Assembly (NCBI GenBank): GCA_965214775.1
Contig: OZ243974.1
Span: 2,272,001 to 2,336,000, forward strand
Reading direction: 5' to 3'
Source: Nitrosopumilus sp.
GTDB taxonomy: Archaea > Thermoproteota > Nitrososphaeria > Nitrososphaerales > Nitrosopumilaceae
Length of the DNA: 64,000 nucleotides
Shown here: in pieces, positions 16,313-25,729 of the stretch
Layout of the letters: every line of letters begins with the position of its first letter
Position numbering within the stretch: position 1 is the stretch's first letter
Program-made: the position numbers and the translations under genes
The notes under the pieces: generated by a model
What the model saw: only the letters and a program-made list of their open reading frames with translations
Databases searched by the model: none
What the model was told of the DNA's origin: nothing

Positions 16313-16415
16313 GTTCGTAGCAGGTCGGGCTCTGGAAGTTCATGTATGAATTTTGTCAGTAATGACTGCCGATCAAATAGAATTTGTTCGTAGCAGGTCG
16401 GGCTCTGGAAGTTCA
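16313..16415. repeat. 30-bp perfect direct repeat x2, period 73 bp
   Basis: GTTCGTAGCAGGTCGGGCTCTGGAAGTTCA at 16313-16342 and 16386-16415. Confidence 0.9.
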
Positions 16416-22256: not shown

Positions 22257-24931
22257 ATGAAAGGTCAACCCTCCACATACTGTGAGATCGAGGCATCTAT
22301 GGCATCGTCGACGGAGAAGATACAGAGTCTGGAAAAGGGCATCAAGGAACGTGACAACATCATCAAGGAACGTGACAACATCATCAAGGAACGTGACACG
22401 ACCATTGAGAAACTAAACAACATAATCAAGGATCAGGGCAGCAGGCTCCGATACTATGAGAACGAGAACTCGCCCCCGTCGGCAGACTCGCTTGCGTGGA
22501 AGGAGCAAAAGGCACAGAGGAAAAAGGAGAGGGCCCGATCCGATGCTGCAGCCGGGAATGACGTAGTATCCTCGGCTACCAATTGATCACAAAAAGGACA
22601 ATTTTTTTCAACCAAAGGATCTAAGAGCTATTAGTCCCATATATACACATGAAAGGAAAGAAGGAATTACCGACGGGAACAGCGTTCCTGTACGGGATAG
22701 CAAGCAAGGACGAGCTTTTTAGGATGCACAAGTCCGAGAAGGACGCCAAGGCGGCAATCCGGCTCCTTGCATACCACATGAGAAAGTGCGGCGCGAGCAT
22801 ATATGATATTGCCGAGAAGCTGAGCAGGCCGTATGGAACCGTACGATACTGGCTGGTGCGTGCGCACAAGCATGGCCTGGAGGGCAGGTTTGACATAAAG
22901 CATGGCGCCCCGTGCAGGCTCGACAAGAAACAGCTTGAACGGCTGCGCGCAGACCTGATCAAGGGCCCGGACAACTGCGGCTTTAAGGCCACAACATGGA
23001 CAGGGCCGCTGGTCATTGCCCACGTCAAAAAGAAGTTCGGCATCACGTATGCAGAAACGAGCATGTACGACCTGCTGCACAGAATCGGCTTCTCATGCAG
23101 AAAGCCCAGGCCAAAACACCCAAAATCAGCCTCAGAATCCGAGAAAAAGGAGTTCAAAAAAAAGCTAGGCAGAGCGCAAAGTACTATTCAAAAAAGGGGT
23201 ACACGGTAATGATAGGCGACGAGTCCATGTTCATACTGGGATGGAACGTCAAGAACAGCTGGTACCCCGTAGGAGAGCCGGTCTATACGCCCGTCAGCCT
23301 GTCCAGGAAGCGGTTCTATGTCATAGGGGCCCTCTCAAGAAACAGGTTTGACTATCGCTTTTACGAAAAGGCCAACACGGGAACGTTCTACAAGTTTCTC
23401 AGGACACTGCGCCGCAAGTACGGCAAGGTGTTGTTGTTTGTCGACAACGCATCGTACCACAAGTCAGCAGAACTCAATAGAAAGATGGCCAAGTGGAACG
23501 GGGACGTGGTGCTAAAGTACCTGCCACCGTACGCGCCGGAGCTTAACAACTCGGAGGGGCAGTGGCGCGGGTTCAAAAAGGCGACTTCAAACTGCCTTTA
23601 CAAGACCGTCAAGGAGATGCAGAGATCACTGCGCAGTATGACGCGCAGGGGCGAGATAAAGGTGGTAAAGATGAACAAATGGCTGACGTAGATACTACGG
23701 CACCAGGAATAACAGGAAAAAGCCCGGCGGCCAAAAGGGCCACAAGGGCGTATCGCGCGTCCACCGGCCCACCCGGGTACAAAGGCACTACTTTCCGGGC
23801 GGACAGGCGCCAGAGTGCTGGTGCGGCACCACCACGAAGATCATGAACAGGCCGCAGACACGCGACATGATTGGATTTGAGATCAAGGCGATTGAGACTC
23901 GCCACGAGTCGCAGAGGGCAGTATGCCCAAAGTGCGGCACGTATCATATTGCCCCCAACGGCCTGCCCCGATGCGGCAACTACGACACGAGCGTGGTCAC
24001 AGCCGTCACCAAGCTGCGCAGCGAGGGCGTTCCATACAGCAGGATCCCAGGCATCCTGTCAGATATCACGGGTGTGGACATGTCAAAGTCAACTGCAATC
24101 AACAACGTGGGGCGCGTCTGCGAGGCCGCAAAGGCGCCTGCCGAGGCCATCGCAAAGGAGGTAAAGATCTCAAAGACCGTCTGCATAGACGAGACGGGGA
24201 TCAACCTGGCAGGCAAGACGGGATGGGTGTGGACCATACTGTCAGCAGCAGGCATACTCATGATATACAACAATACAAGGAAGGCCCTGGTTCTGGACCA
24301 GTACATGAGCGGGTACAAGGGTGTCGTCACATCAGACGGATATCCCGCACACAAGAGGTTCGATCCGGGGGGAAGGCACCAGCGGTGCTGGGCGCACGAG
24401 CTGCGGTCCCTCCTGTATGGTTCGCAGAAAAAGGACGCCCCGCTGTTTGCAGGGATCCTGTACCGGCAGGGGCAGCAGCTGTTCGGAGACGCCAAGACGT
24501 GTCTGGAAGGGTGGGACAAGCTGTCCCCTGAGGATCTCCTGGATCTTGAAGAGAGGACGGGAATAAGGGCCGCCGACGGGCTGATGGGCCGGCACTCGCC
24601 GGAGCTGCGCCGGCGGTTTGAGACCAACATGCGCAACGTCCTGTTCGGATACAGGGATACGCAGGACGAATCGTTGAAAGCTCTTGTCAGGCGGATGTAC
24701 AATGCCCTGCCTGGCCTGTTTGCATTCCTGGAATACGAGGACGTCGAGCCCACCAACAATTCTGCAGAGCGGGCGCTGCGCCCCGTCGTATTGCAGGACA
24801 AGATAAGCGGCCAGATCAAGGGCGGCCTGGTCTGGATGGACAGGTACGGATGGCTCAATACATGCACCTCGACGTGGAAGCTGCAGGGCAAGTCCATCAT
24901 GGTTGAGGTAGCCAAAATAATTCAGGGGTAG
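22257..24931 (+). pseudogene. IS66 transposase (512 aa when the IS630 is removed)
   Basis: Coiled coil, NSPPS.D, KPGGQKGHKG, Zn finger, DET, SDGY, QRCWAHELR, PTNNSAERALR; halves rejoin in frame. Confidence 0.9.
22564..23697 (+). mobile_element. IS630-family element type B, copy 2 (A8 allele, two frames: 22649-23209 and through 23691)
   Basis: Same ends and (A)CG target as copy 1; one A shorter in the run at 23156-23163. Confidence 0.93.
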
Positions 24932-24943
24932 GTGACCTCATAC

Positions 24944-25496
24944 GTGCTACCTGTTCGCCTCGATGGACGACGATACGCGCTACTGGCTGGCCTCCGACTT
25001 GGCAGACAGCAAGTTCCAGCACAACGCGGATTCCCTCTTGGAGATAACCAAGAAGCAGGCAGGAAAGAATCCTAGGAACTTCATCACGGACGGCCTGCCG
25101 GCCTATGCCAAGTCCTCAAGGAAGGTATTCGGAAAGGGCACAAACCACGTGAAGCACATCCGTCTGGCAGGAAAAAGGGACAGTGACGACAACAAGATGG
25201 AGAGGCTCAACGGTGAGATCAGAGACCGCGAGAAGGTGTTCAGGGGCCTCAAGAAGATGGATACGGCCATACTTGACGGAATGAGTCTGTCTTTCACTGT
25301 TCTTTCTTCCACCCAGCTGTTCAAGAAGATGGATACGGCCATACTTGACGGAATGAGGGTATACTATAATTTCACAAAAAAGCACGGTGCACTGGACGGC
25401 CAGACCCCTGCAGAATCGGCCCTGATAAGCGTGGACGATGCGAACAAGTGGAAGACGATAATCCAGAACGCCTCACTAAGCAAGGATTCTGTCTAG
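24944..25496 (+). pseudogene. IS6-family-like DDE transposase, 5-prime truncated, with a 72-bp in-frame insertion
   Basis: YLFASMD..TRYWLA, FITDGLPAY, MERLNG.IR.R.K..RG.K, YYNF...H..L.G.TPAE. Confidence 0.82.
25249..25357. repeat. 37-bp perfect direct repeat flanking a 35-bp unique segment
   Basis: TCAAGAAGATGGATACGGCCATACTTGACGGAATGAG at 25249-25285 and 25321-25357. Confidence 0.95.
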
Positions 25497-25729
25497 GTAT
25501 AAACTTTCAATTCGGAGAAGATCCTGTCTCAGGTGTCGAAGATTGCACATAACCTCAGGCCGCATGCCGGTTCACAGAAAGCATGTATACAAATACTTCT
25601 GATACCCCCCGTACCATCCATGCGGCTCTGACATGTCTGCTGCGCTGATTTTTTAAAAGGTTTACACACCCAATTTTATGAATAATCAGAAAATGCAATT
25701 CTTTAATATGTTATTCTTAAAATCATTTT

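Follow-up and report, generated by a model that had tools for sequence, protein, structure and literature searches.

The stretch of DNA considered here, a 64,000-base window of a single-contig Nitrosopumilus genome of 2,833,656 bases (contig OZ243974.1, positions 2,272,001 to 2,336,000; G000:C1:2272001-2336000 in our numbering), carries within the remnant of an IS6/IS240-family insertion sequence (IS) a 35-bp segment bracketed by two identical copies of a 37-bp unit. We regard it as very likely that this structure is the scar of an off-target, full-site spacer integration by the genome's own Cas1-Cas2, at a site that does not belong to any CRISPR array. In such an event C1:1086376-1086410 would have yielded a prespacer of about 35 bp, excised from the chromosome, whose two 3' ends would have attacked opposite strands of the IS6 fragment 37 bp apart, and gap filling would then have doubled the 37 bp in the same way as a CRISPR repeat is doubled when a spacer is added. 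Cas4 probably took part together with Cas1-Cas2; that Cas1 was the catalyst, which Cas1 module acted and when the event took place are points that we infer. The value of the window scar lies in the population of scars to which it led, on which we base a broader proposal that we consider reasonably probable, namely that off-target spacer integration is a frequent and recurrent natural mutational process in this archaeal genus, one that inserts 24-residue segments into proteins, breaks genes, strikes preferred sequences again and sometimes grows mini-arrays, leaving behind scars that amount to an unselected record of mostly self capture.

The features on which the argument rests are the following.

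23843 to 24931, + strand: open reading frame of an IS66-family transposase (PF03050, 124 bits), occupying the place of the missing 5' part of the IS6 element
24944 to 25520, + strand: 5'-truncated fragment of an IS6/IS240-family element bearing the scar, homologous to other copies from 24944 onward
24963 to 25496, + strand: open frame of the transposase remnant, 177 residues including 24 derived from the scar, with no stop across units and insert
25249 to 25285, + strand: first of the two copies of the target unit, made of coding sequence native to the IS6/IS240 transposase; other IS copies carry this 37-mer once
25286 to 25320, + strand: insert of 35 bp, the size of a spacer, matching G000:C1:1086376-1086410 at 34 of 35 positions, with unrelated flanks there
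25321 to 25357, + strand: second copy of the 37-bp unit, 100% identical to 25249-25285

Direct comparison of the two 37-mers, whose starts lie 72 bases apart, reveals no difference between them, and the 35 bases that they enclose are those quoted in the original prediction, which had been made from the sequence alone and had described a perfect duplication around a foreign segment. Because the open reading frame on the + strand continues through the whole structure, the 72 bp gained keep the frame, again as first described, and lengthen the product by 24 residues; the 35-mer, read from the window sequence, also proves to have no inverted repeat at its ends. The host gene is itself a remnant: a full IS6/IS240 copy elsewhere in the genome encodes 326 residues, of which the window copy retains only about the last 153, and the scar-bearing frame gives a weak match to DDE_Tnp_IS240 (E 2.3e-5, 25 bits, under the 27-bit cut-off). 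Homology to the IS6/IS240 element begins directly after the IS66-family frame, which may have caused the truncation. Given the truncated IS6 copy and the IS66 frame at its edge, the scar lies within a dead IS fragment in a nest of such elements, where it is most likely without function. The nest as a whole (22996-25520) comprises three IS remnants, one IS630-like with a DDE_3 domain, one of the IS66 family and the IS6/IS240 fragment. The scar unit is IS coding sequence and does not qualify as a functional CRISPR array, in which a leader precedes transcribed repeats that the matching effector and processing proteins recognise.

The unoccupied form of the site is preserved in the same genome. 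All five of the other IS6/IS240 copies that could be aligned over the site carry a single 37-mer and a clean gap of 72 columns, and a BLAST test of the scar site recovered eight empty-allele copies and no other scar-bearing copy, so that the empty allele anticipated by the original prediction does exist and the scar has no second copy. A search of the 2.83-Mb genome that tolerates up to six substitutions locates the 35-mer at a single further place, C1:1086376-1086410, where the match, at 34 of 35 positions, stops exactly at the insert boundaries; that place spans the start of a 68-residue open frame and the bases upstream of it, is native in appearance and is preceded on its 5' side by the three bases TTT. 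Since this source is 1.21 Mb distant, the 35-mer is neither native to the IS nor drawn from nearby sequence, the two origins that had been named as arguing against a spacer acquisition; its absence from the other IS copies further means that it is not a native sequence that became duplicated. Judged by sequence, then, a delimited piece of the chromosome, 1.21 Mb distant, was copied to give the insert.

The genome also possesses the machinery that such an event calls for, although none of it lies within the window, as had been noted: there is no cas1 in the 64 kb, and the only cas1 of the genome is found about 128 kb downstream of the scar at C1:2426073-2426972 (PF01867, 232 bits; TIGR00287, 1e-64). 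It is adjacent to cas2 and cas4, all three being open frames, in a run beside array 1 that reads cas4, cas2, cas1, cas3 (HD and helicase parts), cas5b, cas7/Csh2 and two frames without matches; we name the system type I-B-like because the subtype models score under their curated cut-offs. Archaeal ribosomal protein genes adjoin the cas module, and no alpha subunit of methyl-coenzyme M reductase was found. Array 1 consists of 68 repeats of 37 bp and 67 spacers, mainly of 33 (3 spacers), 34 (16), 35 (25), 36 (12) and 37 bp (5), with a bulk range of 33-38 bp and a mode of 35 bp (25/67), so that the 37 + 35 bp of the window scar reproduces the modal geometry of this array. Near its leader end (C1:2424440-2424570) array 1 is irregular: one repeat there is partial and degenerate, and two "spacers" are over-long, at 50 and 57 bp. 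Array 2 (C1:1977219-1978060) is an orphan of 12 repeats of 36 bp with spacers of 36-39 bp; the 15 kb examined upstream of it hold no cas genes, and it adjoins IS66 and VirD4/TraD-like genes. None of the 78 real spacers matches the rest of the genome by more than 17 bases, and no solitary copies of the real repeats were found elsewhere in it. The expectation that the genome would hold cas1 and cas2 together with a 36-37-bp repeat resembling the 37-mer was thus borne out for cas1, cas2, cas4 and a 37-bp repeat, and not for the resemblance, which is absent over the whole unit and only partial at its ends.

The genome at large holds further structures of this kind. We scanned the whole of it, period by period from 40 to 130, for direct repeats without gaps (+1 for a match, -3 for a mismatch, threshold 22), excluding the two real arrays and short-period tandem repeats. 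The scan yielded 113 non-tandem two-unit repeats, 58 of which fall at periods 70-76, with 3 events at period 70, 5 at 71, 14 at 72, 16 at 73, 12 at 74, 6 at 75 and 2 at 76, as against 0-3 at each of the periods 65-69 and 77-81. This peak excludes a chance origin of the scar, and the size distribution is narrow rather than broad. Repeats of the same unit length at all other periods amount to 22 rows, which reduce to about nine distinct multi-copy sequences; multi-copy families with periods of 79-82, 63/117 and 86 were left out of the counts. For further analysis we used a set of 52 events (periods 69-77, minus a six-copy family of period 75 and the event at 2133530, which has 4 mismatches) and, within the narrower limits of 33-40-bp units and periods of 70-76, a core set of 38. 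The core units measure 34 bp in one event, 35 in 5, 36 in 15, 37 in 10, 38 in 4 and 39 in 3, the core inserts 32-39 bp with a mode of 36, and the two units are identical in 32 of the 38. All 52 inserts differ from one another. Empty alleles exist in paralogous copies for 14 of the 52 events (11 of the core 38), and no scar is common to two copies. Paralogous copies within the genome served for this purpose because the hotspot gene has no DNA-level match in any of 30 relatives, 18 of them from the same genus.

A second genomic copy of the insert exists for 22 of the 52 events (15/38 in the core), with full-length matches for 11 of these 22, six of them at 100% identity. Several of the sources are multi-copy, two inserts deriving from one 12-copy IS630-like transposase gene, and of the 10 full-length sources that are unique, 4 are found no farther than 100 kb from array 1 (binomial p 0.004, a post hoc figure). 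GC skew was uninformative for placing origins or termini relative to the insert sources. Three sources fall within 33 kb at C1:1053573-1086410 (one of full length at 1062473, that of the window scar at 1086376 and a partial one at 1053573), and this region may be a second protospacer hotspot.

Some of the events lie close together. At C1:1266834-1267015 (L024:6834-7015), at the 3' end of a 562-residue frame, there is a mini-array of three 36-bp units and two inserts, in which the first unit, near its 5' end, has an indel and two mismatches relative to the others, and four scars lie within 1.7 kb at this place. Glycosyltransferase, sulfotransferase and AbiE genes make up an island in which eight events are gathered within 45 kb. 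Overall the density amounts to about 13 scars per Mb in this genome; in G014, which belongs to another species of the genus, it is about 8.

Among 60 genomes of the same genus a match of any kind to this Cas1 was found in 19, the closest being 55% identical. For G014 we rebuilt contig C1 (1,861,824 bases) and scanned it as above: outside its arrays, whose repeats measure 36, 37 and 30 bp, 32 events were found, 16 of them at periods 72-74 and none at 68-71 or 75-82. Leaving out one 23-bp event at 1825240, 15 were analysed, and for 5 of these 15 inserts a self source of full or near full length lies on the same contig; two G014 sources are situated 7-18 kb from the CRISPR-cas cluster. In two pairs of loci (C1:124523 with 772618, and 377456 with 1825240) copies of a repeated element have been struck at the same target with different inserts, which indicates preferred off-target sites; the pair 124523/772618 has the same polarity when oriented by the TTN flank of the source. 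G014 further contains isolated two-unit repeats at C1:648736 and 1310110, whose units of 31-33 bp and periods of 66-67 correspond to the geometry of its array of 30-bp repeats, and a small separate four-unit array of a related repeat at C1:1821585-1821750. In another relative, G002, our Cas1 query found no Cas1, and the first 800,000 bases of its 2.2 Mb hold 16 two-unit events, none with core geometry, where about 10.7 scars would be expected at the G000 density and about 6.4 at that of G014. The occurrence of scars in two cas1-bearing genomes, and their absence from 0.8 Mb of a genome without detected cas1, constitutes an indirect pointer to Cas1.

A further link to CRISPR adaptation is found in the sequence at which the units end. 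When the 76 ends of the 38 core events are read inward and compared with genome composition, position -3 is G in 33, position -2 is C or G in 57 and position -1 is A in only 6, while inside the unit G stands at +1 in 31 and C in 22, a C or T at +2 in 60, a G or T at +4 in 55, and an A at each of +6 and +7 in 34; the bias reaches chi-square p values of 1e-3 to 1e-5 at seven positions. The termini of the array 1 repeat, likewise read inward, are GTTTCAAT and GTCGTAAT, and those of the array 2 repeat CTTTCCAC and GCTTCAAT. At the level of the population, the scar unit ends carry the motif of real repeat termini, that is, G or C at +1, a pyrimidine at +2 and A at +6 and +7. The unit ends of G014 repeat it, with G or C at -2, a pyrimidine at +2 and A at +7, and the left end of the window scar fits it at -3 to -1, +2, +6 and +7, its +1 being T. 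Likeness of whole scar units to either real repeat is weak (population z of about 4, driven by the ends). Beside one end of 8 of 16 full-length sources there is a 5'-TTN (combined p 0.003; 4/11 in G000, p 0.08, and 4/5 in G014, p 0.009), a motif picked after the data had been viewed.

Several observations weigh against an off-target integration by the present Cas1-Cas2, and they concern both the window locus and the population. The window 37-mer lacks overall likeness to a real repeat, starts with T instead of the preferred G and bears the end motif only in part. The insert sources show no consistent protospacer-adjacent motif (PAM), TTN being merely suggestive. Seven public runs from three studies contain the stretch, and none of the listed contigs of runs X1, X3, X5 and X7 spans 25249-25357, so that the locus lacks assembly-independent support, and the unit/insert junction gave no matches in metagenome contigs. 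As regards geometry, the core period averages 72.9 as against 72.1 in array 1 (Mann-Whitney p 3e-4), and 36 rather than 37 bp is the commonest unit length, which brings the core nearer to orphan array 2, with its 36-bp repeat and mean period of 73.5 (p 0.19). Either the present integrase measures 36-37 bp where the internal motifs of the repeat are missing, or a module since lost made some of the scars.

The latter idea leads to the most durable of the alternatives, that the scars were written not by the present I-B-like Cas1 but by a second adaptation module, since lost, of the type I-G Cas4/Cas1 fusion kind serving the 36-bp repeats of array 2. This we consider unlikely. The modal unit and mean period just given, close to array 2 and distinct from array 1, speak for it, as does the fact that in G014 the array 2 repeat family adjoins a type I-G Cas4g/Cas1g fusion (712 bits), a fusion that G000 does not have, its own array 2 being without cas genes in the 15 kb examined upstream. 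Against this, the lost module has left no trace in G000, where the search matches only the I-B-like cas1 at 30% identity; the perfect units of 32 of the 38 core events and the several inserts 100% identical to their sources are signs of recent events; and the window scar has exactly the geometry of array 1. Furthermore, a unit one base shorter than the repeat is what would be expected of a ruler deprived of its internal anchor motifs.

Repair of a double-strand break with templated "filler" DNA, whereby a flank is duplicated and Cas1 is not involved, strikes us as improbable. Break repair is able to capture short fragments, and the insert is indeed a copy of chromosomal DNA; such repair should however give a broad range of sizes, whereas across 38 events the units stay within 34-39 bp and the inserts within 32-39 bp, with none at neighbouring periods. 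Neither would it account for the repeat-terminus motif at the unit ends, for the scars of a second species sharing the geometry of that species' own arrays, or for their absence from the 0.8 Mb examined of the relative without detected cas1. The "undescribed integrase" that had been offered as an alternative at the outset is not needed.

That the window locus is an artefact of assembly or sequencing is very improbable. The nest of IS elements around the site is indeed repetitive and breaks short-read contigs, a circumstance that together with the missing contigs and junction matches keeps the suspicion alive; an assembler, however, has no means of placing a 35-mer from 1.2 Mb away inside an exact 37-bp duplication with CRISPR geometry, and the pattern is common to dozens of loci and to the separate genome G014. 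Still less credit is due to slippage that duplicated 72 bp locally in tandem, with later divergence, or to a tiny mobile element with a 37-bp target duplication: unit, insert and unit are formally 1.5 copies of a 72-bp tandem repeat, and another locus of the window (16313-16415) does look like one, yet no other IS copy contains the 35-mer, whose match lies 1.21 Mb off, and as every one of the 52 inserts differs from the rest, no one mobile element can be responsible. Insertion of an IS or of a miniature inverted-repeat transposable element with a short target duplication was likewise rejected, since there are no inverted ends, the 35-mer occurs only at source and scar, and the inserts differ everywhere. 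The likeness to an IS target-site duplication is confined to the direct repeat of target DNA around inserted DNA; target duplications of IS elements usually measure 2-14 bp, as opposed to 37 bp here, and the 35-bp insert has neither inverted ends nor a gene and is different at each locus. We therefore retain off-target integration by Cas1-Cas2, a fossil spacer acquisition as the original prediction had it, on the combined strength of the empty allele, the insert source, the cas module and the scar population.

A process of this kind is known: Nivala, Shipman and Church (2018, Nat Microbiol 3:310), whose work we know through papers citing it, reportedly found that non-canonical, off-target spacer integration gives rise to "neo-CRISPR" loci. 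The scars resemble these loci in that Cas1-Cas2 places a spacer-sized fragment at a non-CRISPR site and doubles a repeat-length stretch, thereby creating a repeat-spacer-repeat structure, and in that reuse of one site can extend it, as seems to be illustrated here by the three-unit mini-array at C1:1266834-1267015. They differ in that the E. coli work, in the parts of that literature available to us, used a type I-E system with over-produced Cas1-Cas2 and supplied oligonucleotides, whereas the scars are natural, fixed in the genome of a type I-B-like archaeon, numerous (38-52 here, 15 in G014) and mostly made of self DNA. Natural evidence for off-target integration is called "circumstantial", and confined to "two other species", in the accessible text of 10.1101/148544.

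Purified proteins from another archaeon offer a closer comparison. According to the available portion of one study (PMC6698737), the non-CRISPR sites at which Pyrococcus furiosus Cas1-Cas2 integrates in vitro are pairs spaced by the repeat length, with a preference for G and then C at the integration nucleotide and enrichment of G1, T2, A6 and a C-rich flank at -3/-4. The scars show a comparable pattern of G or C at +1, a pyrimidine at +2, A at +6/+7 and a G/C-rich stretch from -3 to -1; the difference, as far as that portion goes, is that the P. furiosus sites were carried by plasmids in vitro and the repeat measured 30 bp, while ours are chromosomal and inherited with units of 36-37 bp. The sampling of self DNA also has a counterpart, for in the sections available of PMC5737086 P. 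furiosus is described as using its own chromosome as the source of most spacers it acquires, the hotspots being active transposons and CRISPR loci, and E. coli is cited there as having adaptation hotspots at ter and at active arrays. Our inserts resemble those spacers in that many are host-derived, with 4 of 10 unique sources no more than 100 kb from an array and others in multi-copy IS genes. In the same sections, by contrast, the self spacers enter real arrays and are seen only by deep sequencing, while the self fragments here persist at off-target sites and the real arrays hold none in 78. We found no report of genome-wide natural off-target scars in the literature searched, beyond which further papers could alter the picture; a 2026 preprint counts off-target acquisition among the proposed origins of isolated arrays. 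The scar population is thus a natural and unusually rich instance of a known process and not a new mechanism.

These results bear on CRISPR adaptation in more than one respect. The earlier evidence, in the parts of it that were available to us, came from over-expressed enzymes in E. coli and from purified archaeal proteins on plasmids, the natural role being called circumstantial, whereas dozens of fixed events with empty alleles, sources and a motif allow the specificity intrinsic to a natural type I-B-like integrase, and its molecular ruler, to be read without experiment. The scars also quantify a cost of CRISPR adaptation in the form of insertional mutagenesis. The sampling of self DNA becomes directly comparable between off-target inserts, of which 22 in 52 have a self source, and array spacers, of which none in 78 does. 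If our proposal is true, the scars, having no use in interference, preserve without selection what Cas1-Cas2 takes up, for the most part self DNA with a large share from IS elements and from the neighbourhood of the CRISPR locus, and this record shows how strongly self-derived spacers are purged from real arrays. The proposal would likewise make the birth of new CRISPR loci observable in natural genomes, the early stages of which are visible in the three-unit mini-array and in the repeated strikes on one target sequence. Finally, a repeat-length unit paired with a spacer-length insert is a simple screen, applicable to all CRISPR-bearing genomes.

Some additional repeats of this genome, the largest of 61 sampled in its genus and one very rich in repeated elements, call for separate mention. 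Within a repeated element there is a six-copy family (C1:113943, 228016, 794568, 1521943, 1531675 and 1590841) with a 34-bp repeat (2 mismatches), a 41-bp middle and a period of 75; either transposition has carried an old scar to these places, or the repeat is native coding sequence. Within the window, the segment 4086-4200 (G000:C1:2276086), with a 33-39-bp repeat, a 43-46-bp middle and periods of 79-82, was discarded as a scar since at least 8 copies exist and the sequence is the same in every one, which makes it part of a repeated element. The segment 16313-16415 (G000:C1:2288313), with a 30-bp repeat and a 43-bp middle at period 73, was also rejected, its middle and 12 bases of the unit being contiguous in 8 other copies; it looks like a local tandem duplication in a repeated element, and contigs of runs X3, X5 and X7 span it without differences.

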